Source: Acidobacteriota bacterium (GTDB lineage: Bacteria; Acidobacteriota; Terriglobia; Terriglobales; Acidobacteriaceae). Taken from it: a stretch of DNA of 64,000 nt. Shown piece after piece: positions 4,405 through 55,505 of this stretch. The stretch is taken from positions 545-64,544 of the forward strand of contig JABCYV010000001.1 of NCBI GenBank assembly GCA_013290025.1, given 5' to 3'. Positions within the stretch are counted from its first letter, which is position 1, and every line of letters starts with the position of its first letter. The notes beneath the pieces were generated by a model. The model saw only the letters and a list, made by a program, of their open reading frames with translations. It did not search any database and was not told the origin of the DNA. The position numbers and the translations under genes were made by a program.

Positions 4405-4595
4405 CGGTTCACATGTCACAGACTTAGTCCAACGAGCAAACTAGATTGTCCTCATGCCATGCGGACTAACGCGGTTTCACCAGAGCGGCCAGAGTCATTG
4501 CGTCACTTTCTGCTGCTACCATCGCCGTCGGTTATTTACCACGCATGCAAGCCGACGGTGGTGGCTCAATTTGAATTTTTCAGCTTATAGTGCGG

Positions 4596-4703
4596 GGTCA
4601 TCCTGAGTGCAGCCGTTTTTCAGGCGGAACGAAGGATCTCCCACTGGCCGTATCTATGGGAGATCCCTCACGCGGCTGAAGGACGCCGCGTTTCGAGATG
4701 ACG
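4596..4703. repeat. nested imperfect palindrome (about 108 bp, MITE/REP-like)
   Basis: Three tiers of inverted arms: GTCATC/GATGAC, CAGCCG/CGGCTG, and a perfect 10-bp GGATCTCCCA (4634-4643) / TGGGAGATCC (4657-4666). Confidence 0.5.
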
Positions 4704-4986
4704 GCGTCGAAGGAGAATAAGTTCAAACTGGGCCACTACCAAGCCAATGGGTTGAGATCGAGTCGGAATGGACGGCGCGAAAACGCGAACGAGCTGCGGG
4801 AAGACTTTGTCCAGCTGCAGAACTGCCCCACTCAAGTTGAGGCGTTTGCGCGGCGTCTGAGCCGCGCGCCGAAATCCCGAGCAAGTCGAGGGACCTCAGG
4901 CCAAAAACCAGGCTTGAATGGGCCACCTGTCAGGAATCGTCGCACTTCGCCGCAACGTACTGCACAGTCTATAATTGCGCGCACGG

Positions 4987-9579: not shown

Positions 9580-10317
9580 ATGACAAATGCGAACCGTGTA
9601 ACGATGATCCGTGTTCTGGCTTACGGGGTGCTGGTCCTTGCTGCAACTTCCTCGGCGCAGAATCGTCCGCCCATTCTCGAACAGATCGCCAAGACCTATG
9701 GCCTTGATTCGTACGGGAAAATTGAGGCGATTCGCTACAACTGGAACTTGGAAATCCCCGGAGTAGTCAAACTTGCTCACGCGTGGGAGTGGGAGCCCAA
9801 GACCGGCAAAGTCAGCTTCGAGAGTACGGATAAAGACGGTAAGCCGGTGAAGGTTACATATCTGCGCTCTCAACTCAGCACCCAGCCCGACGCCGTGAAG
9901 AACGAAGTTGAGCCGGCTTTCGTCAACGACAATTATTGGCTTCTGTTCCCGTTACATGCTTATTGGGACACCAGCGCAACCGTGGCCGATCAAGGTATGA
10001 AGAAACTGCCGATTGGCGCTGGCTCGGCCACGCTGGTCTCGGTGAAGTATCCCGCGGAAGCCGGCGGCTACACCCCCGGCGACACCTGGGAACTCTACGT
10101 CGGCAAAGACAACCGCGTCGAATACCTTGTCTTCCACCACGGCGGGACCAAGAAGCCGAGCCTCGTCAACGCAACCTGGGCAGGCTACAAAAAGGCGGGC
10201 CCACTGCTGATCTCAACCGAGCACCGCGGCACTGCCGATGGCAAGCCCCTGCACATCTGGTTGTCTGACGTGGCAGTTAAGGTGACGGGATCAGACACCT
10301 GGGTGGACGCGAAATAA
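9580..10317 (+). CDS. secreted hypothetical protein
   Basis: ATG 9580 is preceded by AAGGAG. Signal peptide MTNANRVTMIRVLAYGVLVLAATSSAQ. No family recognised. Confidence 0.7.
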   Translation: MTNANRVTMIRVLAYGVLVLAATSSAQNRPPILEQIAKTYGLDSYGKIEAIRYNWNLEIPGVVKLAHAWEWEPKTGKVSFESTDKDGKPVKVTYLRSQLSTQPDAVKNEVEPAFVNDNYWLLFPLHAYWDTSATVADQGMKKLPIGAGSATLVSVKYPAEAGGYTPGDTWELYVGKDNRVEYLVFHHGGTKKPSLVNATWAGYKKAGPLLISTEHRGTADGKPLHIWLSDVAVKVTGSDTWVDAK

Positions 10318-24242: not shown

Positions 24243-24887
24243 CTAGGCTGCTTTTTTCGCCAATCCACCTTTCTCAATGATGAAGTTTGCAATCGGCTCA
24301 ACCCCTTCGCCGCTCTTCAAATTTGAAAAAACGAAGGGCCTCTTCCCGCGCATTCTGAGCGTGTCCGCTTCCATTACCCCAAGATTCACCCCTACCAGAG
24401 GAGCAAGGTCGATCTTGTTAATAACGAGAAGATCGGAGCGCGTAATTCCAGGACCGCCCTTGCGAGGGATCTTCTCACCTTCCGCAACGTCGATCACGTA
24501 GATCGTTAGGTCCGCCAGTTCGGGGCTGAAAGTTGCCGCCAAATTATCTCCGCCCGATTCCACAAAGCACAACTCTGCATGCGGGAATTTCTTGTTCATC
24601 TCTTCGATGGCAGCGAGGTTCATAGATGCATCTTCTCGGATTGCAGTGTGAGGACAGCCTCCGGTTTCGACTCCCATAATGCGCTCCGCCGGCAGTGCCT
24701 GCGCACGGGTAAGGATGAGCTGATCCTCCTTTGTGTAGATGTCATTCGTAATCACGTAAATGTCGTATGTGTCGCGGAGGCGCTTGCAGAGCGCTTCAAC
24801 GAGTGCCGTTTTGCCGGACCCGACAGGGCCGCCGATACCGACACGCAAGGGATGGGCTTGGGAATCGGAACTCGAAGTATCAGTCAT
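24243..24887 (-). CDS. ureG: urease accessory GTPase UreG
   Basis: [12 protein letters not shown]-loop, ESGGDNL and NKIDL motifs. Confidence 0.97.
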
Positions 24888-25594
24888 GACCGAAATAACC
24901 TCGTGTATTGGGTTTCATGAGATGCGGAAGCAAAATCGACCACGAACGCGGCCGAACCCAGATCGTGAATTGTTGCCTGTTCAGCTTGGGCAGCCACAGC
25001 CAGCACTGCTGGCTCAAGCTCGGCAATAGCAAGCTGTCCATCGGTTTGACCAAGAGGGATCAAGCGCACACCGGCCGTTACTAAGTTCGCGAGATAGCTT
25101 TGCAGAAAAGCGGGCAGGGCCAACGTGGCCGGAATGTCTTGCCTTGCTGCGCGAACTCCGAGAACCACTGATAAGACCGGTGCAATTCTGAGTTCCGAGA
25201 GTAATGCCGACAGACTCTCCATGAGAGTATCGGGCCATACGCGGCGCAATGTAGCGAGGCAGGCCGTCGCCTGCTGCGATGTTTCAAGTGCAAATTCCGA
25301 TGTCCCCCGAAAGGCGGCTGCGAGTTCCGCAATTTTAAGCAACTTTTCGCAGTCGTCATCTGTCGCCGAGCGCCAGGCCTCAATGAAGAAAATCGCTTCG
25401 TTTCGTCCTGAGCCATAGCAGAGATCTGCTTCCAGCCAATCCACAAGGCTTTTGCGATCATGAATGTGTCCCGCTTCTACGGCCCATTCGATACCGTGAG
25501 AGTAGCTATACGAGCCGGTAGGAAACGCGGGCGAAAGCCAGCTTTGCTGCCTCAAGAGTGCCACCTGTGAGACAAGCTGCTGCTGATCACTCAT
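24884..25594 (-). CDS. ureF: urease accessory protein UreF
   Basis: [21 protein letters not shown] motif. I chose ATG 25594 (MSDQQQL), which overlaps the ureE end by 8 nt. Confidence 0.88.
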
Positions 25595-26111
25595 GATGAT
25601 GTTGGCTGCCATGATGTTTGTGGTGGTGGCCGTGACCGTAAGCACCGCCTTCCGGCTGGAAGGCGGACTGGACCTTTTGAAGATCCGCCCCCAGGCCACG
25701 GAGCATATCTTCTATTACGTGGTCGGGCCGAATAAGAAGAACATGGTCTCGAATTTCGGTCGGCAAATGCCGATTACCCAGGTGCCATGCTAGGCGCATC
25801 AGCTGGATAGGATCTTTGTGTCTGACTTCGACAATATCCTCCGCAGCCGCCTGAACCTTTAGCCACCTTCCATCGTCCAGTTGCAGCCCGTCTCCTTCAG
25901 CCATGGCAACCGCTTGGGGAAGGTCGAGCAGGACATCTTCGCCTTGATCCCCAGTCAGGCGAATACGGCGTCGATGCCGCGCGTCGAAATCAAGAGTGAG
26001 CGATCCTGCCGCGTTTTCCGTCGGCCAATCCCCGGCGAGTCGATGAACGGAAGCGCGATGAGTGGGATCACCGTGAATGGAAGCGTTATGCGTGGTCATA
26101 GTCATACTCAA
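25587..26111 (-). CDS. ureE: urease accessory metallochaperone UreE
   Basis: Position in the operon, HLGNRHLP motif, and His-rich tail [16 protein letters not shown]. Confidence 0.9.
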
Positions 26112-27817
26112 TACATGAAATAACGTTGAGCCAGGGACAGTACTTTGGCCGGCTCACAGGTGAGAAGGCGGCCATCGGCCCGCACTTCGTAGGTTTCGGG
26201 GTTTACTTCCATGCGAGGCGTGGCATTATTCAAAATCATCGAACGCTTGCCGATCTTGCGCGTGTTGGATACGGGAAGAAGTTTCTTTGCCAGTCCAAGC
26301 GTTTCCCCTTTTTGGAGCAGCGCCTGGCTCACAAACGTCACCGAGCTTTCCGTCAAAGAGCGACCGAAGGCACCGAACATGGGCCGGTAGTATTCGGGTT
26401 GCGGTGAAGGGATGGAGGCGTTGGGGTCTCCCATGATCGCAGCCGCGATCGTGCCGCTCTTTAGCACCATGTCGGGCTTCACCCCGAAAAAGGCTGGATC
26501 CCAGATACAAATGTCGGCAAGCTTCCCAATTTCAATCGAACCGACGTATGTAGAAATACCTTGAGCTATCGCGGGATTAATCGTGTATTTCGAAACATAT
26601 CGTCGGGCCCGGAAGTTGTCGTTTTCGCCTTTCTCGTCGGCTAGCCGCCCAAATTGCTTCTTCATTTTGTCCGCGGTCTGCCAAGTTCGGATAATCACCT
26701 CACCCACACGGCCCATGGCCTGGCTGTCTGAAGACATGATCGATAGGGCCCCAAGATCATGCAAAATGTCTTCGGCCGCGATGGTTTCCTTGCGAATCCG
26801 GCTCTCGGCGAAGGCAAGGTCTTCAGGAACTCGCGGATCGAGATGATGGGTGACCATCACCATATCCAGGGCCTCATCGAGCGTATTTACAGTGTATGGT
26901 CGGGTTGGAGTTGTAGAAGCTGGAATAACGTTTGGTTCGCCGCAGACCTTGATGATGTCCGGGGCATGTCCGCCGCCCGCTCCTTCGGAATGAAATGTAT
27001 GAATGGTCCTGCCCTTGAAAGCGGCGATTGTATTTTCGACGAACCCGCTTTCGTTAAGCGTGTCGGTATGGATCAGAACCTGCACATCCATGTCATCTGC
27101 GACAGACAAGCAGGTATCAATAGCTGAGGGTGTCGTACCCCAGTCCTCATGAAGCTTCAAGCCGCATGCCCCCGCCTCGATCTGTTCAACGAGACCTGCT
27201 GCAGAGCTCGCGTTGCCTTTGCCGAAAAAGCCAAGGTTGATGGGAAAGCCATCAGCTGCCTGCAGCATCCTCTGAATGTGCCACGGACCTGGAGTACAGG
27301 TCGTTGCATTCGTCCCCACTGCAGGTCCCGTCCCACCGCCCATCATTGTGGTCAGGCCTGAATAGAGAGCCTCTTCGATCTGTTGTGGGCAGATGTAATG
27401 AACGTGCGTGTCGATGCCCCCGGCTGTCACAATCTTGCCCTCGCCAGCGATTACTTCGGTTCCGGGCCCTAGCACAATGGTGACGTTCGGTTGCACGTCA
27501 GGATTGCCAGCTTTGCCTATGGCGGCAATACGCCCGTCTTTGATCGCGATATCGGCCTTCACGATTCCCCAGTGATCGAGAATCAGGGCGTTGGTAATGA
27601 CGGTATCCACCGCGCCGTCGCTGCGCGAACGCTGCGACTGACCCATGCCGTCGCGAATTACCTTCCCGCCTCCGAACTTCACCTCCTCACCATAGGTCGT
27701 GTAGTCCTTCTCCACTTCGATGACGATGTCTGTATCCGCGAGGCGCACTTTGTCGCCGACAGTCGGGCCAAACATTTGCGCATAGGCAGCGCGGTTCATT
27801 TTTTTAGGCATTTTCAA
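26108..27817 (-). CDS. ureC: urease subunit alpha
   Basis: [35 protein letters not shown] and MVTHHLD motifs; 569 aa. Confidence 0.97.
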
Positions 27818-28141
27818 CTACCTCGCTGGCCCTTTCGGCAATGCTCCCATCACCGCCTTGTTGAAGCCATAAATCAGCCGTGCGCCTGCGTATGGGATTA
27901 GGGAAACTTCGCGCGACTGACCCGGTTCGAAGCGCACGGCGGTTCCTGCCGGAATGTCCAGGCGATACCCAAGTGCTGCTTTTCGATCAAAAGCGAGAGC
28001 GGCGTTGCTTTCGGCGAAATGGTAATGACTGCCGACCTGGATCGGTCTGTCGCCAGTGTTTGCGACCTTAAGAGTGATGGCAGCTCTGTCCTTGTTCAGG
28101 ACAATCTCGCCTGTTGCTGCAAAAATCTCGCCCGGAATCAT
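27818..28141 (-). CDS. ureB: urease subunit beta
   Basis: MIPGEIF...[20 protein letters not shown] 28141 has GAGGA 7 nt upstream; the track start 28147 sits too close to the SD. Confidence 0.93.
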
Positions 28142-28222
28142 GACCATGTCCTCTTAGACCTTTCAACTCGCTCTGCGATCTTCATTGCTGTCTTTCTTTT
28201 CTCGGATCAACCTTTCAATTGA

Positions 28223-28803
28223 CTATTGTTGTGGCAAATCCTGGTATGGCATTACGAGATACAACTCGGAACGTACCGGCAAATGGGCGACGTAAGGTTG
28301 CCCGTCTGAACCGTCGTGACTGAACGTTGCGAGATCCTCGTTGTGCGGCGTCATGATCATTACGTGAGGGCCGACGTGGTAGGTGTGGTCCTCGCTGTGT
28401 GAGGTTCCGTGCAAATCTTGAACCCATGCACCTGTGTACATGTACATCACGCCAATCTGGGCTATATCAACGGGACGGCCGGCCAGGCTGTCCTTGATCC
28501 ATTGCATGAAGTCTTGTCCAGGCACATTGGCTCGTCGTGCGGATAGCCGGGAACGCCCGGGAGACATGTCCAGTTGCTTTTCACGGGGCGCAAAATGCGA
28601 TACTGCGCGTTCGGATCCTTTGGATCCGCCGGCCAGTCCGCGATCACGGCATCTTTGGTGACAAATGCCAGCCCTCCTCGCAGTGCATCGGCGATTTTTT
28701 GTTCGTCTGTGACGGGCTTCTTGAGGGACGTATCCATTTGCGCCGAAGCAACGAGTGTAGCGGCGAAAAGTACAAAGCCAAGCAGTAGTTTGATCATGTC
28801 CAC
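28223..28803 (-). pseudogene. secreted hypothetical protein inside the urease operon, frame broken once
   Basis: ORF 28462-28803 (signal peptide MDMIKLLLGFVLFAATLVASAQ...PMCLDKT) continues in another frame as ...FMQWIKDSLAGRP...PYQDLPQQ (track ORF 28223-28834). The 1-nt shift lies near 28480. Confidence 0.6.
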
Positions 28804-28833: not shown

Positions 28834-29064
28834 TTAGCTCAATGCTTCGTCCAGTTTCGGCACATCAAAACCTACGATTACCTTGTCTTCGACGACCGTG
28901 ACGGGGCTGGTCATGAAGCCGAGCTTCTGTAGCTCCAAAATCGCAGAGGGGTCCTTCGTGATGTCCCTGTCATCGAACTGAATCTTTTTTTGTGAAAGAT
29001 ACCCCTTCACCTGGCCACAGAACATTCAGCCCGGCTGACTGTATACGATCACTTTTTTGGCCAT
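28834..29064 (-). CDS. glutaredoxin/NrdH-like small redox protein with in-frame TGA at the first Cys of CxxC (candidate selenoprotein, UxxC)
   Basis: From ATG 29064 (AAGGGG upstream): MAKKVIVYSQPG-TGA(29026-29028)-MFCGQVKGYLSQKKIQFDDRDITKD...VIVGFDVPKLDEALS. A 7-bp hairpin with GGUAU loop (28992-29010) starts 15 nt after the TGA. Confidence 0.6.
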
Positions 29065-29089: not shown

Positions 29090-29392
29090 TCAGCGAATTG
29101 GATTGTGAATGCTCACAAGTTTCGTTCCATCGGGAAACGTTGCTTCAACCTGCATTTCGGGAATCATCTCGGCGATGCCTTCCATCACCTGGTCACGGCT
29201 CAGGACCTTGCGGCTTTCCGACATCAGCTGAGCAACCGACTTGCCATCGCGCGCGGCCTCCAGGATGAAATCGGTTATGAGCGCAACAGTCTCGGGATAG
29301 TTGAGCTTGACACCTCGTTTAAGCCGCTCTCGAGCGACAATCGCGGCAAGTGAGATCATCAGCTTGTCTTTCTCACGCGGCGTGAGGTTCAT
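29090..29392 (-). CDS. ureA: urease subunit gamma
   Basis: [34 protein letters not shown]...[16 protein letters not shown]; 100 aa. Confidence 0.95.
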
Positions 29393-29417: not shown

Positions 29418-30329
29418 TTAGCATGCCCAAATTTTCGGTACTTGAAAGGGTCCGGAGCCGAGCTCTGGTCCGAATTGCTGAAGAAAGCTGCGCAAGGCAA
29501 GCTTCAAATCAAAGGACTCTTGCGTTGCAAAGCGGACGACGATAAGTCCGCCCACCAACGTCGCTGCACAATTGCATCCCAGGGAAGGAATAATCTCGCG
29601 CAAAAAATCCAGTCGTTTCTCTAGATAGGGTCCGAAATAGATCAGTGTTGCAACCGCCCTGCAGTTCGCGAGCAAGGCCTTCCTGGTAACCTGAGAAAAG
29701 ATCTCGTCGGTGATGCGAAAGCTGTCCGCCCAGATCAGCCGATCGTCTTTTTTCACGCGCCAGCTGTCGCTTATGTTGCCGCCGACCACGACTTCGCCGT
29801 GTGCGGTACGCCCCAACATAAGCCACTCGAGGGCAAGCAACTCCGCTCCAGAGGAGAGATAGATCTCTGTCGTCCGGTGAAGACGTGCCCAATTGAAAAC
29901 GATTGTTTCCTGCGGAAGCCATGCAAGCTTGGCGGACTCCTCTACTCTCAGCCTGGTCACAACGTGCGCTGGTTCATACAACGCCCGATAGACCTTTTCC
30001 GCAGCCTGTGAAGTCACGGCAATCGAGGCCTGCGGGAGCGCGGTGACAGACCACTCGAGCTGGTCGCCGCCCGCAATGCCTCCTGCAGTATTGATTAGTA
30101 CAGCCTCTTGCACCGCGCGATGTTCGGTTCTTGGGAACATGATGCGAATCGGAGACCGTTCAAAGACGTCTTCGATCCGGGTACCGTTTTCGGAAGCACT
30201 CAATACGATCCGGCCGCATCCGTCCGCACGCTGCAGATCCCGATCCGACGGACGCTCCTTACTCACATCTGGCGTACGAGAAAGACTCAATTCGTCGGTG
30301 ACATCGGATGGTGACATCGCGTCGAACAT
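29418..30329 (-). CDS. ureD: urease accessory protein UreD/UreH
   Basis: [14 protein letters not shown] motif. I chose the start MFDAMSPS (30329); the track start 30578 adds an implausible 83-aa leader. Confidence 0.82.
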
Positions 30330-30598
30330 CGGCTTGCACCAACTGGTCCGCTGGGCGCGAACGACACAATAATACATTTTTCTTTGATAGATATGTGGCG
30401 ATGCCCCGCCGCTGCTGCATGGCATCGCCTGTCCGCGGTCTAACTGCCCGCGGCTATTGGTAACGCTCTCTGGATGACGCTTACTGCTCCCCAATTCAAT
30501 CGTTTCGCGGAAGTACCTGCAGCGCGTCCGTTGCGGCAGATTTTCTTCGCGCGAGGCCACATGACTGAACTGGATCATTGCGCCCCCTTTGAACGGAA

Positions 30599-31921
30599 TC
30601 AGAACCCCGCCAGCCCCGCCGGGCTGTTGTAGGGAATTTTCACGCTGGTGATCTCTTTCAGCGAACCGTCCGGCTGGGTCGCGTAGCCCACAAGTTTCGA
30701 CGCATTGCCGTAAATCTGGTAGAGATAGGCGCCATCGGGCGAAAGCCAGCTATCGCTGGGGCCGCTGCTGACCACTCCATTGATTGCTCGGAAAGTGCCA
30801 TCTCCAGGGACCTTCGGGCTCGCGGGATCCTTCGCTATAGAGAGCACGTTGCCGTCGATGCGGTAGCTGCTGATGTCGCTGTAACCAAAGTTCGTCGTGA
30901 ACACCCATCGGTCATTCGGGGAGACTGCGAGCCAGCATAGTTCAGAGGGCCTGCCCGCGCTCGTGTCGAGCGTTACGGGTGCGCTGACCATGATTTTGCC
31001 GTTAGCGTCGACCTTGCCGATGGATACTCCGTCGCTAACGGCATATCCGACGACGAAGGTATCCGGCCGGTTGTGCAGGAAGGCGATGTAGAAGGGAGAA
31101 GCGCCTCTGGCGTCGTAAAATGAGGGCCCGCCGAGTGCGCCGTCTTCGCCCACTGGGAATACGACTATGCCGTCGGGGTCCGGTGCATTCGAAGCGATGA
31201 CGTGCAGTGCTCCGTCTTTGTGCGGGATCCAGAGAATCAGTGAGCCGTCCGGATTTTTTCTACTGGGCAACTCGTCGAACGTGGTGCCGACAAAGAGGAG
31301 TTTCCCGTCGGGAGAGAGCACGGCCATCGTTGGCACACGATTGGGCCAGTCCATCGTGTTCACCGAGTATCGCTCCGGGCGCGGCGTAAGCTTGCCTTCG
31401 CCGTCGACCGACATGAGTCGGAGATGGTCGGGACCGAACGTGTGCACCACGAAAAGTGTGCGACTCGATGGGGCATAGGCCACCGATTTAACGCCACCGC
31501 TTTGTGTGTTCCCCGTCCGCTTCACGTCCAGCAGCGTGAGACGGCCTTCCTTATTTGCCGCGAAGCTGGAGACGGAATTGTCGCCGGCGTTGGTAGCGAA
31601 CAGAAAGCGACGATCCGGCGTGAGAATGACACTACCCGCGCCCTCGAAGTCGTTCGGCCGGTTAATGTGGTAGATGGGGCTCAGTTCCCCAGAACCGGCC
31701 CCGCCGGTCGCGACACGTTCCACCTCGGCAAGCGCGCCGTTCGCAGACCGTTGGTAGTGGATGATGGCGTTCTCTACCTCGTTAGTTTGCATGTAGAGAT
31801 GGCCGCCAGCAGCTTTCTTCGTCTGCGTGGTTGGCGCTTGAGCCGATCCAACAGCCGTAAAAATAACAGTGGAAGCAGCGATAGCAATCAGTGTGAACGA
31901 GAGTCGTGATTTCGGCATCAT
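30599..31921 (-). CDS. secreted beta-propeller protein (lactonase-like 7-bladed propeller family)
   Basis: Signal peptide. HLYMQTNEVENAIIHYQRSANGALAEVERVATGGAGSG and repeated blade-like segments. Paralog of 32051-33343. Confidence 0.75.
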   Translation of the reverse strand: MMPKSRLSFTLIAIAASTVIFTAVGSAQAPTTQTKKAAGGHLYMQTNEVENAIIHYQRSANGALAEVERVATGGAGSGELSPIYHINRPNDFEGAGSVILTPDRRFLFATNAGDNSVSSFAANKEGRLTLLDVKRTGNTQSGGVKSVAYAPSSRTLFVVHTFGPDHLRLMSVDGEGKLTPRPERYSVNTMDWPNRVPTMAVLSPDGKLLFVGTTFDELPSRKNPDGSLILWIPHKDGALHVIASNAPDPDGIVVFPVGEDGALGGPSFYDARGASPFYIAFLHNRPDTFVVGYAVSDGVSIGKVDANGKIMVSAPVTLDTSAGRPSELCWLAVSPNDRWVFTTNFGYSDISSYRIDGNVLSIAKDPASPKVPGDGTFRAINGVVSSGPSDSWLSPDGAYLYQIYGNASKLVGYATQPDGSLKEITSVKIPYNSPAGLAGF

Positions 31922-32050
31922 GGCACCTTGTGTGTACTGAACGAGCGACTTATGGGAGCGCGGAAGGCTTCGGCCTTCCGCGCCCCGTCACGTAGTTAAA
32001 CTGCAATTCGTAAGCCACCGCGGCACGCTCGCAGTGCCCCGTTGGGGAAA

Positions 32051-33343
32051 TCAGAATCCCGCCAAACCCTCCGGGCTGTTGTACGGGATCGCGACGCTGG
32101 TCACCTCCTCCAGCGAGCCATCCGGTTTCGTGGCGTACCCCACCAACTTCGACGCATTCCCATAGATCTGATACAGGTATTCACCATCCGGAGAAATCCA
32201 GCTGTCGCTCGGTCCACTGCTGACGTCTCCACAAAGCCCCCTGAAGGTGCCATCGCCCTCGACCTCGGGGCACGCAGGATCCTTCGCGACTCTGATCTCG
32301 AGGCCGTCGATATGGAAGGTGGTGATGTCGCTGTACCCGAAAACCGTAGCGTATAAGCGTCGGTCATCGGGGGAGACGGACAGCCAGCAAAGTTCAGCGA
32401 TCGCGCCTCGCCTTGTGTTGATCGGTACGACCTTGTCGACGCCAATTCTGCCGTTTTCGTCGATTCTGCCCAAGGCCACTCCATCGCCGACGGCATATCC
32501 GATGATGAACGTATCCGGCCTGTTATGCAGGAACGCGATGTAGAACGGAGAACCGCCTCCTCCATCCTGGAAGGAGGGGTCGCCGAGCGTGCCGTTTGCG
32601 TTCACGCGGAATATAACGATGCCGTCGGGATCTGGCGCATTCGAAGCGACGGACCGGGGTTTGCCGTCTGGACCAGGCACCCAGAGAATGGGTGAACCGT
32701 CCGGATAAGTGCCGGAGATCGCAATGGGCAGATCAAACGTGGTGCCGACAAGGAGAAATTTCTCATCTGGCGAGAGCACACCCATAGTTGGAACACGGTG
32801 TGGTTTCTCCGGTGTATTCGCCGTGTATCGCTCCATGCGGGGCGTAAGCTTGCCATCACTGGAGACCGACATGAGCCGGATATGGTCGGGTCCGAAGGAG
32901 TGAACCACGTAAAGCATGTCCTTCGAGGGAGAATATGCCAGCGATTTGGCAGTACCGCTCTTTCCTTCCACGGCGTTCCCCGTCGGCTTGGTGTCGATTA
33001 GTGTGATCCTGCCCTGATCGCCCACGGCGAAGCTGGAAACCGAATTGTCCCCGCCGTTTGTGGCAAACAGAAACTTGCGATCTGGTGAGAGGATGACGCT
33101 ACCCGCGCCTTCAAAGGAGTTGGGCGCGCTCTCTTGGCCGCTGATCGGCTTGAAAGTCCCCGAACCTGCACCGCCGGTGGCGACACGTTCTACCTCTGTG
33201 AGCGTGCCGTTGGCGGAGCGATGGTAGTGAATGATCGCGTTCTTGACCTCATTGGTTTGCATGTAGAGATGGCCACCATGGCCGTTCATGCCCATCTCTC
33301 TTGACATCCCCATTTCTTTCGACATACCCATATCTTTTGGCAT
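32051..33343 (-). CDS. beta-propeller protein paralog with Met/His-rich N-terminus
   Basis: MPKDMGMSKEMGMSREMGMNGHGGHLYMQTNEVKNAIIHYHRSANG... ATG 33343 has GGAG 6 nt upstream. Confidence 0.75.
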   Translation of the reverse strand: MPKDMGMSKEMGMSREMGMNGHGGHLYMQTNEVKNAIIHYHRSANGTLTEVERVATGGAGSGTFKPISGQESAPNSFEGAGSVILSPDRKFLFATNGGDNSVSSFAVGDQGRITLIDTKPTGNAVEGKSGTAKSLAYSPSKDMLYVVHSFGPDHIRLMSVSSDGKLTPRMERYTANTPEKPHRVPTMGVLSPDEKFLLVGTTFDLPIAISGTYPDGSPILWVPGPDGKPRSVASNAPDPDGIVIFRVNANGTLGDPSFQDGGGGSPFYIAFLHNRPDTFIIGYAVGDGVALGRIDENGRIGVDKVVPINTRRGAIAELCWLSVSPDDRRLYATVFGYSDITTFHIDGLEIRVAKDPACPEVEGDGTFRGLCGDVSSGPSDSWISPDGEYLYQIYGNASKLVGYATKPDGSLEEVTSVAIPYNSPEGLAGF

Positions 33344-33421
33344 ATTCATCTCCTTTTTTGTCCTTTCAAATTGAATTCGATTTTTTGCGCGACTCAGCCA
33401 CGCTGACAGAAATCTCGGCAC

Positions 33422-34030
33422 CTAATATCCTTTTTTGTCACGAAGTAATGGATAGAACTGAATCCATGTCATTTCTGTGGCGGCGACATTGGCGATGTGG
33501 CATCCGGCACATTCGGTCACGGACTTCTCAGCTGCGGTCTTGTCATACGGCATTGGATGATGCCCAAAAGTGAAGAAGCCCCAGCCGTTGGTCTTTGCAA
33601 AGCGCTTACTGTCTTTTACTGTCAAGTCGATGCCGTTGTACTCGCCATTGAAGTACCCGCGTCCAGAAGGCTCCTTACGAGAGCCGTCTGGAAAAGTCGG
33701 GTTAAGAACCCGGGTCAGTTCTTTTACGATGACCGTTCCTTCTGGAAACTCGCCTGTCTTTAGATACGCATCGACGTTTTTCTGCTCGACGTACACGTGA
33801 TGATATTCAGGAAAGTTCGCCTTTCCATCATTGAGGCCGTTGGGCGTTAAGGGGGCCCCCACAAAAACCCACTTGCGAAAACCGGTTGGCAACTCCAACT
33901 TGCCATCAGCATCGAACACGGCGCTCGACTGTTCATTCTGGGCAGCCGCCACCGGTTTCGCGACCAGCAGGTACACGCCTGAGGCGGTCAGTCCCAGTCC
34001 AACGATGATCAGCAACAGATACTTTTGCAT
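33422..34030 (-). CDS. cytochrome P460 family protein
   Basis: Signal/anchor, FPEYHHVYVEQKNVDAYLKTGEFPEGTVIVKEL, and a C-terminal CAGCH haem motif. Confidence 0.8.
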   Translation of the reverse strand: MQKYLLLIIVGLGLTASGVYLLVAKPVAAAQNEQSSAVFDADGKLELPTGFRKWVFVGAPLTPNGLNDGKANFPEYHHVYVEQKNVDAYLKTGEFPEGTVIVKELTRVLNPTFPDGSRKEPSGRGYFNGEYNGIDLTVKDSKRFAKTNGWGFFTFGHHPMPYDKTAAEKSVTECAGCHIANVAATEMTWIQFYPLLRDKKGY

Positions 34031-34084
34031 TGCAATTCTCCTTGTGAAGCGTTTACAGAACCGAGTTTCTTTAGAGCCTTCTGC

Positions 34085-34645
34085 TTACTTCGATTTGAGG
34101 ACCGGGTAACCTTGCACGTACACCCAGTCGGTTGACTGAGCTGGAACATGACAACCCAGGCAGTCTTTTTTGTAGTTAGTTGCAACCTGTTTATCAGGCG
34201 CATCGGATTTGAAAAGGGCCCATCCCCATCCATCGCCCCACAGCGGATTGCCGGGATAGCGTCCCTTGTCGTCTTTGATCATGACGAACCACACTTTCGT
34301 TCCTGTAGCCCAATGTGCGTCACCGGTCGTCAGTTGCGCGTGATCAGTTGCAAACACCTCTTTAACCAATACGGTTCCGTCCGCGAACTTTCCATTCTTG
34401 CGGTAATACTCAGCTGTCCCTGGCGGCGCGTACGTGTAGTGCATCTCGGTGTTGTTGTTGAGATCGACCGGTGTATACACTCCAAGCGCCTGATAGAGAT
34501 CTCTAAAATCAGCCGGCTTGCGAATGTTTCCCGTCTTGTCGACAAGATCAAAGCCGTTGTGGCTGCTCACTGATTGAGAATTGATCGGCTGTTGGCCAGT
34601 CAAAAAAACAAGCGCAAGAACGAGCGATGCAATGCGAATCGACAT
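34085..34645 (-). CDS. cytochrome P460 family protein (paralog)
   Basis: Signal peptide, YYRKNGKFADGTVLVKEVF, GWGWALFKSD and CLGCH. Confidence 0.8.
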   Translation of the reverse strand: MSIRIASLVLALVFLTGQQPINSQSVSSHNGFDLVDKTGNIRKPADFRDLYQALGVYTPVDLNNNTEMHYTYAPPGTAEYYRKNGKFADGTVLVKEVFATDHAQLTTGDAHWATGTKVWFVMIKDDKGRYPGNPLWGDGWGWALFKSDAPDKQVATNYKKDCLGCHVPAQSTDWVYVQGYPVLKSK

Positions 34646-54960: not shown

Positions 54961-55505
54961 ATGGCAAGTCTTCAATCGCGTTTAGATGATTTTAAGAAAA
55001 CATTCGAATCTGGAGCTCCACCGCACAACGCTCAGCATGAGGCAATCAAAAAGATGCATCGAGCGACAGCCGATCTCAAGGCATCAGGACTTGAACAGCA
55101 AGCGCTCAAGATCGGTGACCGTGCTCCGAGCTTCGCCTTATTCAATCAGGATCACGTGCAGGTGGTCTCGAAAGATCTTCTGCGCGAAGGGCCATTGGAG
55201 GTCAGCTTCTTTCCGGGGACACTGGTGACCTTATTGCAACATGGAGCTGGAGGCTCTACACGGAATCAATTCCGAAGTCCGAGTATTCAGTCTTTACGCT
55301 GCCGGATTACTTGCGCGATCTTTACAAGTCGTTCGGTAATGCACTGGACAGGTTCCACGATGAGGCGGGGTACCGATTGCCGATACCTGCACGCTACGTG
55401 GTCGACAAGCAAGGGATCATCCGGGCAGCCGATGTGAACCTAGATTACACAATTCGTCCGGAGTCTTCGAACACTCTCAGGCAGTTGCGGATGTTAACCG
55501 GGTGA
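54961..55505 (+). pseudogene. peroxiredoxin-like (AhpC/TSA, Prx-like2) gene with frameshift, internal deletion and TGA at the first Cys of the WCPYC motif
   Basis: Frame 1 reads ...GDRAPSFALFNQDHVQVVSKDLLREGPLEVSFF. The next frame reads RGHW-TGA-PYCNMELEALHGINSEV. The third frame reads FTLPDYLRDLYKSFG...YVVDKQGIIRAADV. About 45 aa expected between the last two blocks are missing. Confidence 0.7.

Follow-up and report, generated by a model that had tools for sequence, protein, structure and literature searches.

Glutaredoxins that carry selenocysteine (Sec) in a UxxC motif form a bacterial selenoprotein family recorded as having experimental support (PMC13188914), and members from Geobacter, Alkaliphilus and Moorella were catalogued in 2006 in a record that also credits Acidobacteria with three selenoprotein families (PMC1794560). 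We analysed a 64,000-nucleotide stretch of DNA from an Acidobacteriota bacterium (contig JABCYV010000001.1), hereafter called the window, in which a small gene at positions 28834-29064 of the minus strand, embedded in a urease operon, is interrupted by an in-frame TGA codon. Comparison with its relatives predicts that this is very probably a genuine Sec-encoding gene. Taken as a whole, the locus is, with good probability, best explained by a 76-residue glutaredoxin-like selenoprotein (Sec-Grx), in which UGA-13 would be decoded as Sec and a Sec13-Met-Phe-Cys16 sequence would form the active site. A preliminary description of the locus, made from the DNA letters and their translations, had called Sec-containing glutaredoxin- or thioredoxin-like proteins an established class, and both sources cited above agree. 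The novelty of the gene is therefore limited: its kind is known, and it is an additional, currently mis-annotated member.

The coding sequence is read from an ATG at 29064-29062 through 12 codons (MAKKVIVYSQPG), a TGA at 29028-29026 and a segment starting with MFCGQVKG to a TAA stop at 28836-28834, and it comprises 76 codons, including UGA-13, plus the stop (ATG GCC AAA AAA GTG ATC GTA TAC AGT CAG CCG GGC TGA ATG TTC TGT GGC CAG GTG AAG GGG TAT CTT TCA CAA ... TAA). The predicted Sec is the first residue of a U-M-F-C motif, and the TGT codon at 29017-29019 specifies Cys16, the putative resolving cysteine, in a column that is invariably cysteine among the relatives (TGC 32, TGT 38). A Shine-Dalgarno-like sequence, AGAAGGGG, occupies 29077-29070 and is separated from the ATG by a 5-nucleotide spacer (TGTTC). 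Direct reading of the minus strand thus agreed with the upstream ATG, the TGA and the Shine-Dalgarno-type box that the preliminary description had reported.

The open reading frame (ORF) finder returned only the 63-residue piece that follows the TGA. This piece alone was aligned to positions 11-60 of the Pfam Glutaredoxin profile (PF00462), while the sequence read through with Cys at the TGA covered positions 1-60 of 60 with an E-value of 2e-13 and a score of 50.7 bits (gathering score 22.9); the short frame therefore lacks the N-terminal beta-strand and the first redox cysteine, as had been proposed. The closest solved structure was chain A of PDB 7c10, named 'Glutaredoxin', which aligned over residues 1-75 with an E-value of 8e-15, its Cys13 lying opposite the UGA and its VVGFD sequence opposite VGFD. 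Both the PF00462 motif and 7c10 place the TGA at the first cysteine of CxxC proteins, where it had been located from the letters alone. A thioredoxin fold is suggested by the alignment to 7c10; an AlphaFold model of the orthologue that carries Cys gave a predicted local distance difference test score (pLDDT) of 57 with the N-terminus unmodelled, from a shallow alignment of 20 mostly truncated homologues. A changed genetic code was excluded, since TGA is an ordinary stop in the window: 25 of the 41 long ORFs end with it, including ureA, ureC, ureE and ureF.

Among the NCBIfam models the best match was the YruB family (TIGR02196), with 69.7 bits over profile positions 1-73 of 74 and a cut-off of 88.55. 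Lower scores were obtained with NrdH (TIGR02194; 54.2 bits, cut-off 85.75), the Uxx-star glutaredoxin-like selenoproteins (NF041212, NF041211 and NF041114; 52 bits, cut-off 66) and GRX_bact (TIGR02181; 31 bits, cut-off 90), and no NCBIfam model reached its cut-off on the Sec-Grx protein. Only glutaredoxin-type families matched, and no homology to the known urease accessory families (UreD/E/F/G/H/J class) was detected. Classical glutaredoxins possess a CPYC-type motif, a TVP sequence that binds glutathione (GSH) and a GG-x-dD signature. The protein described here has U-M-F-C, T-S-P and, at the C-terminal motif, VGFD, and falls outside the classical GSH-dependent group. As judged from its sequence, it is a small glutaredoxin-like redoxin of the NrdH/YruB type, with a U-M-F-C motif and without the GSH-binding signature.

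Relatives were collected by a search of 5.8 billion proteins, which returned 205 sequences, the best 120 of which were listed; on the DNA level, 8 genome loci, 80 metagenome loci and several contigs from an exact protein look-up were compared, and gene copies were gathered with a pattern allowing any TGN at codon 13. Almost all of the 120 relatives listed had been called as proteins of 63-64 residues starting with MFCG, indicating that they are cut at the same TGA, and the sole full-length 76-residue form with Cys among them was P0001 (MAKKVTVYSQPACMFCG). Codon 13 was TGA in 102 of 103 gene copies and TGC in the other one; counting distinct full-length genes, the figures were 69 and 1 out of 70. 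The carriers of TGA included metagenome-assembled genomes (MAGs) of Acidobacteria group 1, a Syntrophobacteraceae MAG with two paralogues, a delta-proteobacterial MAG and a Binatia MAG, and protein identity among carriers drops to about 40-57%. The 12 codons upstream of the TGA are kept as protein (M-x-K-K-V-T-V-Y-S-Q-P-G) with up to 4 synonymous codons per column, and the 62 codons downstream are likewise conserved with synonymous variation. The start codon was ATG in 65 and GTG in 3 of the 70 distinct genes, and a purine-rich box precedes it in related loci. The single TGC orthologue (P0001, locus L023) sits in the same ureD-ureA context and, together with Cys13 of 7c10, supplies the Cys/Sec pair at this column that the preliminary description had proposed to look for.

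These data bear directly on the possibility that the TGA arose as a nonsense mutation in what was once a glutaredoxin-like gene of the CxxC type. The window does contain decayed genes, namely gene X of the urease operon, which is frameshifted, and a peroxiredoxin-like gene (about 54961-55500), which is frameshifted and truncated. However, the same TGA recurs in all but one of the distinct sequences, down to the lowest identities and across several phyla, with intact frames, strong amino-acid conservation and synonymous variation on both sides of it. Close homologues uniformly carrying TGC or TGT, with no conserved downstream hairpin, had been named in advance as the pattern of a pseudogene; what was found is TGA in 69 of 70 distinct genes and a hairpin that is kept. 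The comparative data effectively refute a pseudogene, which we consider hardly conceivable.

The TGA could also be a true stop, terminating a 12-codon upstream ORF that is followed by re-initiation at the adjacent AUG (UGA-AUG) to yield a 63-residue protein with a single Cys and no first beta-strand. An ATG directly follows the TGA in the window, as it does in 53 of the 70 distinct genes, an arrangement that resembles translational coupling, and nearly all public annotations call the form of 63-64 residues. In the other 17 genes, however, codon 14 is CTG, ATC, ATT, CTT or TTG, which means that independent initiation cannot, as a rule, account for the downstream part. The 12 residues before the TGA are moreover kept as protein and align to the first strand of both the glutaredoxin profile and 7c10, while the 63-residue form would be deprived of profile positions 1-10 and with them of the first beta-strand and first redox residue; re-initiation would also leave the synonymous sites frozen in the hairpin, described below, unexplained. 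We regard a true stop with re-initiation as very improbable, and read-through of the UGA with insertion of Sec remains the preferred reading.

Two gene copies, at 4530-4760 of the delta-proteobacterial locus L006 and at 1380-1610 of the Binatia locus L007, showed extra stops or frameshifts in their C-terminal half, the former being disrupted in the N-terminal codons too; these defects represent either assembly indels or decayed copies, and both genes were excluded from the codon statistics. The Syntrophobacteraceae MAG contig (L005) harbours two Sec-Grx paralogues, at 2617-2844 and 9962-10189. Both possess the TGA as well as a hairpin, which in one of them keeps its stem through a shifted register with a 2-nucleotide bulge. 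These paralogues are surrounded by duplicated S-adenosylmethionine (SAM) methyltransferases, a CYCXC-family protein and CDF transporters.

A hairpin resembling the Sec insertion sequence (SECIS) of bacteria was recognised at 28992-29010 (minus strand), where the mRNA can form GUGAAGG-GGUAU-CUUUCAC, starting 15 nucleotides after the UGA. The sequence contains the 7-bp stem with one G-U pair and the G-rich, 5-nucleotide loop previously reported for it. The bacterial SECIS (bSECIS) model specifies a loop of 3-9 nucleotides with a G in the first two loop positions, a stem of 4-16 bp, a UGA-to-loop distance of 16-37 nucleotides and a minimum free energy (MFE) of -7.5 kcal/mol or lower, the loop being mostly N1-G-[G/U]-N-N2 with N1 and N2 pairing (PMC13188914). 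With its 5-nucleotide loop, 7-bp stem, 22 nucleotides from UGA to loop and MFE of -7.5 kcal/mol, the window hairpin lies within all the limits of this model, and the earlier assignment to a bacterial SECIS by position and loop type was upheld. Most relatives tested gave MFE values between -8.2 and -9.7 kcal/mol, and one of the Syntrophobacteraceae copies (L005b) only -5.2 kcal/mol.

The hairpin region was compared in an ungapped alignment of 54 distinct sequences. The seven stem pairs were formed in 98.7% of the cells, and in 35-65% when the 3' partner was slid by 1-3 columns. Pair 2 (columns 20-36) was U-A in 39 sequences, U-G in 9, C-G in 3 and unpaired in 3, the C-G form combining a Val-to-Ala change with a compensating synonymous change from TCA to TCG, and pair 6 switches between G-U and A-U. 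The loop reads (A/G)-G-U-A-U, with G27 and U28 invariant, the window having GGUAU and most relatives AGUAU. Codon usage across the hairpin was strongly restricted: Leu23 was CTT in 70 of 70 genes, with 4-6 codons in use at other Leu columns, Glu21 was GAG in 69 of 69, Tyr22 was TAT in 67 of 67 and Val19 was GTG in 67 of 69. The mean synonymous entropy amounted to 0.31 bits in the seven hairpin codons and 0.82 bits in the rest of the gene (Mann-Whitney p = 0.003). The frozen synonymous sites back a constraint on the RNA more strongly than covariation does, the latter being thin, with few independent events. The analysis of the hairpin that the preliminary description had called for came out in its favour through pairing and frozen sites, covariation alone being weak. 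Conservation of the TGA in 102 of 103 copies, along with that of the hairpin among relatives, is more than chance would give.

According to the established scheme of Sec decoding in bacteria, the hairpin would act as a SECIS that tethers SelB with Sec-tRNA(Sec) while the UGA occupies the ribosomal A site, and SelB would deliver Sec at UGA-13. A long lower helix, in which the UGA region pairs with a downstream AUUCAG, was predicted from the window alone and was rejected, not being kept in the alignment consensus.

A number of observations weigh against Sec decoding. Taken by itself, the window hairpin is only mildly unusual with respect to shuffled sequences (z -2.5), 5 of 200 of which fold as well, and its energy is exactly at the -7.5 kcal/mol threshold. 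A two-sided change occurred at one pair only, shared by 3 sequences that are related, and the same number of such pairs was reached in 278 of 500 shuffles. No tRNA-Sec was detected by ARAGORN in the window or in 40 related loci, which represent a small part of any genome, and tblastn with E. coli SelD and SelA queries, a weak test, gave no matches in the window and the collected loci (about 750 kb). As the sequence covered amounts to a small fraction of any genome, these negative results on the sel genes carry no information, and the use of Sec in the lineage is supported by a second conserved TGA/CxxC gene in the mer-type loci described below and by the record in PMC1794560.

An alternative decoding of the UGA would give an ordinary CxxC glutaredoxin-like product, the codon being recoded to Cys or another residue by a selC* tRNA-Cys (UCA anticodon, possibly with a second SelB) or by an allo-tRNA. 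The selC* gene with selB* is known from Syntrophobacterales and Desulfobacterales, and allo-tRNAs are known from Acidobacteria (PMC5389517); one contig carrying the gene (L005) comes from Syntrophobacteraceae, and a SelB*-dependent delivery of Cys would also need a SECIS-like hairpin. However, all genomes containing selC* had a complete Sec machinery, so that selC* appears as an addition to the use of Sec and not as its replacement, and selC* was not reported for Acidobacteria (PMC5389517). Furthermore, if the UGA were read as Cys, TGC and TGT would be selectively equivalent and hence common, whereas such a codon was seen in 1 of 70 distinct genes. Recoding to Cys or another residue is judged very unlikely, and we maintain Sec as the residue predicted at position 13.

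The surrounding operon was then defined from the ORF list and by comparison with orthologues, all genes lying on the minus strand. The accessory gene ureD (29418-30578) is located upstream of ureA (29090-29392), which encodes the urease gamma subunit (Pfam Urease_gamma on the orthologues) and whose TGA stop lies 25 nucleotides before the Sec-Grx start codon. Sec-Grx is followed by gene X (28223-28803), by ureB for the beta subunit (27818-28147), by ureC for the alpha subunit (26108-27817) and by the accessory genes ureE, ureF and ureG (24243-26111). The order ureD-ureA-SecGrx-ureB-ureC-ureE-ureF-ureG was found in 48 of 101 related loci, in soil acidobacteria, and one urease-locus protein is named by NCBI as coming from 'Candidatus Acidoferrum sp.'. 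The preliminary description had remarked on the unusual occurrence of such a gene between ureA and ureB; the position is real, but it is no one-off, since it recurs in these 48 loci. A promoter and terminator scan of the operon gave no more sites than shuffled sequences and provides no evidence either way on a separate transcript.

The product of gene X is a secreted protein that could be assigned to no family, neither Pfam nor NCBIfam giving a match. The slot between the glutaredoxin gene and ureB is empty in many loci, is filled by an amidase in some (L009) and by the 193-residue secreted protein in others, the signal-peptide protein being intact in L030, L032, L036, L054 and L069. The window copy is interrupted near 28506 by a 1-nucleotide frameshift (...CLDKTS|MQWIK...), and the same split occurs in independent JGI contigs (L104-L106), so that it is probably a real pseudogene and not a sequencing error. 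Other loci have paralogues of gene X, 41-56% identical, either between ureB and ureC or ahead of ureD. Upstream of the urease loci there are usually two cytochrome P460 genes and a lactonase-like gene; in the window this block spans 30599-34645 (minus strand) and comprises two cytochrome P460 genes together with a pair of lactonase-like beta-propeller paralogues of about 65% identity, and it accompanies the urease operon in most related contigs (L013-L018). The Rfam gathering scan of the window gave no match to a SECIS family, its sole match being 5_ureB_sRNA (RF02514; 112 bits) at 27370-27658 on the plus strand, antisense to ureC. This family was defined from a Helicobacter antisense RNA overlapping the conserved coding sequence of the urease alpha subunit, and the match most likely reflects conservation of the coding sequence and not a conserved small RNA.

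The fold and the recurrent neighbours of the gene suggest how the protein might work. Sec13 and Cys16 would cycle between a selenol/thiol and a selenenylsulfide form, the protein would serve as a selenol/thiol-disulfide or metal-thiolate exchanger and, where co-encoded, a flavoprotein similar to glutathione reductase and dependent on NAD(P)H (reduced nicotinamide adenine dinucleotide or its phosphate) would keep Sec-Grx reduced. In the urease operon, Sec-Grx might act on Cys-dependent steps in urease activation or in the delivery of nickel, keeping them reduced or clear of thiophilic metals, an example of a target being the Cys-Pro-His nickel site of UreG, which the window UreG carries. Action on this site and direct handling of Ni or thiophilic metals are the candidate roles. 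A redox role directed to urease is possible and is put forward tentatively, the link with urease being drawn solely from conserved gene order.

Some points stand against such a function. The 64-kb window holds no gene for a flavoprotein reductase, a glutaredoxin is not known from any urease system, and we know of no thiol/selenol oxidoreductase that is a member of a urease operon. A cysteine of the urease mobile flap was also considered as a target. This residue precedes the catalytic His and is present in the Klebsiella, Sporosarcina and Helicobacter ureases; in the window UreC the corresponding position of the flap motif (MVMVTHHLD) is Thr323, encoded at 26849-26851, and protection of the flap Cys by Sec-Grx was therefore ruled out.

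A further 36 loci carrying Sec-Grx proteins about 90% identical are mer/metal-resistance clusters. Their genes are arranged in the order MerR, MerT-MerP fusion, CopZ-N-terminal Fe-S protein, 450-residue flavoprotein, Sec-Grx and MerT-like membrane protein. The flavoprotein, a pyridine-nucleotide disulfide oxidoreductase, has its gene immediately before that of Sec-Grx in 16 loci (for example at 6077-7429 of L019), possesses a CxxxxC motif and lacks the C-terminal Cys pair of MerA; it scored 311.6 bits with glutathione reductase and 306.6 bits with MerA, in both cases under the cut-off. Its identification as a true MerA was weakened by the missing Cys pair and by the equal score with glutathione reductase. 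The same flavoprotein was found in 5 urease loci, namely between ureE and ureF in L059 (4143-5495), after ureE in L056 (8952-10310) and L057, and as matches in L030 and L051. More distant Sec forms follow a VKOR homologue or a CusA-type RND pump (L002), and those of L005-L007 are located near SAM methyltransferases, CYCXC-family proteins, CDF transporters and a Cu P-type ATPase.

These contexts raise the possibility that the protein is a genuine selenoprotein in which Sec-x-x-Cys is a metal ligand, serving as a Ni(II) metallochaperone for urease or as a trap for Hg(II), Cu(I) or other thiophilic metals. The mer-type clusters with their MerR-MerTP-CopZ-like-reductase-SecGrx-MerT-like arrangement, the RND pump upstream in L002 and the CDF transporters, Cu P-type ATPase and CYCXC-family proteins beside the L005-L007 copies are in line with this role, and [NiFeSe] hydrogenases are known to bind Ni through selenolate. 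On the other side, the recurrent neighbours are redox enzymes, namely VKOR and the glutathione reductase-like flavoprotein without the C-terminal Cys pair of MerA, and both fold and motif are those of thiol-disulfide oxidoreductases. A metal-ligand function is thus held to be rather unlikely; the metal-resistance contexts would nevertheless keep a metallochaperone role alive, and the redox and metal-ligand roles are not mutually exclusive.

A second candidate selenoprotein was encountered in the mer-type loci, downstream of Sec-Grx. It consists of a single frame annotated as two ORFs of 64 and 104 residues, reading LLLSPT-TGA-x-x-C-LRG. All 16 distinct sequences have the TGA, about 10 nucleotides after which a conserved hairpin rich in G+C (UUGCGGGGGGCUUCCGCAA) is located. 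The product resembles thioredoxins, is membrane-anchored and gave no match with Pfam or NCBIfam; the gene is located at 8038-8616 of L019 (equal to L001) and occurs also in L002, L024, L037, L042, L061, L074, L076, L080, L081, L089, L092, L095 and L100.

A further TGA of this kind was observed within the window, in the peroxiredoxin-like gene at 54961-55500 on the plus strand, which is of the AhpC/TSA type (Pfam E-value 2.5e-10, profile positions 1-49 of 124). It reads ...SFFRGHW-TGA-PYCNMELEAL..., with the TGA (55226-55228) at the first Cys of a WCPYC motif and followed by a possible hairpin, GGAGC-UGGAG-GCUCU, judged by eye. As the reading requires two frame changes and about 50 residues are missing, the gene looks like a decayed second selenoprotein gene of the window.

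Among the papers listed by literature searches, none was a relevant report of a glutaredoxin in urease operons or of Sec-Grx in mer operons. Three features appear to be undescribed: the conserved place of Sec-Grx in 48 urease operons, the presence of a Sec-Grx about 90% identical in mer-like operons beside the flavoprotein and the second candidate selenoprotein, and the fact that some relatives have that flavoprotein beside or within their urease cluster. The location between ureA and ureB, together with the reductase in or near the cluster of some relatives, suggests that the maturation or protection of urease in Acidobacteria includes a redox or metal-handling step so far unrecognised. More speculatively, and somewhat doubtfully, abundant soil Acidobacteria might run a two-component selenium system dedicated to urease, in which the NAD(P)H flavoprotein reduces Sec-Grx and the latter keeps the machinery of nickel delivery or activation reduced or free of thiophilic metals, or carries Ni on its selenolate-thiolate pair, the module being reused in mer-like operons. 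Acidobacteria are major candidates for urea hydrolysis in soil. If such a system existed, soil urea hydrolysis would depend partly on selenium supply, linking selenium to nitrogen cycling, and in the mer-like operons Sec-Grx could provide the mobile metal-binding pair missing from the flavoprotein. The near-identical mer-like copy and the second candidate selenoprotein suggest selenium-based modules for metal detoxification. As for annotation, more than 200 database entries are called as 'glutaredoxin' or 'NrdH' fragments of 63-64 residues that lack the catalytic residue, and the family is not captured by any curated NCBIfam model; a corrected annotation would bring in a selenoprotein that is common in soil.

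Finally, the gene was compared with the known systems that it most resembles. It shares with the Sec-glutaredoxins of Geobacter, Alkaliphilus/Clostridium and Moorella the PF00462 domain, the predicted thioredoxin fold, the UxxC motif with Sec in place of the N-terminal Cys and an in-frame stem-loop after the UGA. It differs from them in having U-M-F-C instead of a CPYC-type motif and VGFD instead of GG-x-dD, and in belonging to aerobic soil Acidobacteria and not to anaerobes, within urease or mer-like operons. The YruB family (TIGR02196) and 7c10 resemble Sec-Grx in size and in the position of the redox motif, and 7c10 also in the MAK-VIVY and VVGFD sequences; they have Cys where Sec is predicted here, and the YruB score remains under its cut-off.

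NrdH-redoxin is another small glutaredoxin-like protein, reduced by a flavoprotein disulfide reductase and not by GSH, and several sources label the 64-residue fragments as NrdH; unlike it, Sec-Grx shows neither the CVQC nor the WSGFRP motif and has no nrdI, nrdE or nrdF gene nearby. The UXX-star selenoproteins have in common with it a glutaredoxin-like domain, the use of Sec and a weak profile similarity. In those families, which we take from their name to carry Sec two residues before the C-terminal stop, its placement is different from the canonical CxxC position, residue 13, predicted here. Like the SECIS elements of E. coli fdhF and fdnG and the bSECISearch consensus, the hairpin lies inside the coding sequence, immediately downstream of the UGA, and has a small G-U-containing apical loop and a spacing within 16-37 nucleotides. 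It has no sequence similarity to the fdhF element and consists of a short stem of 7-8 bp without the long lower helix.

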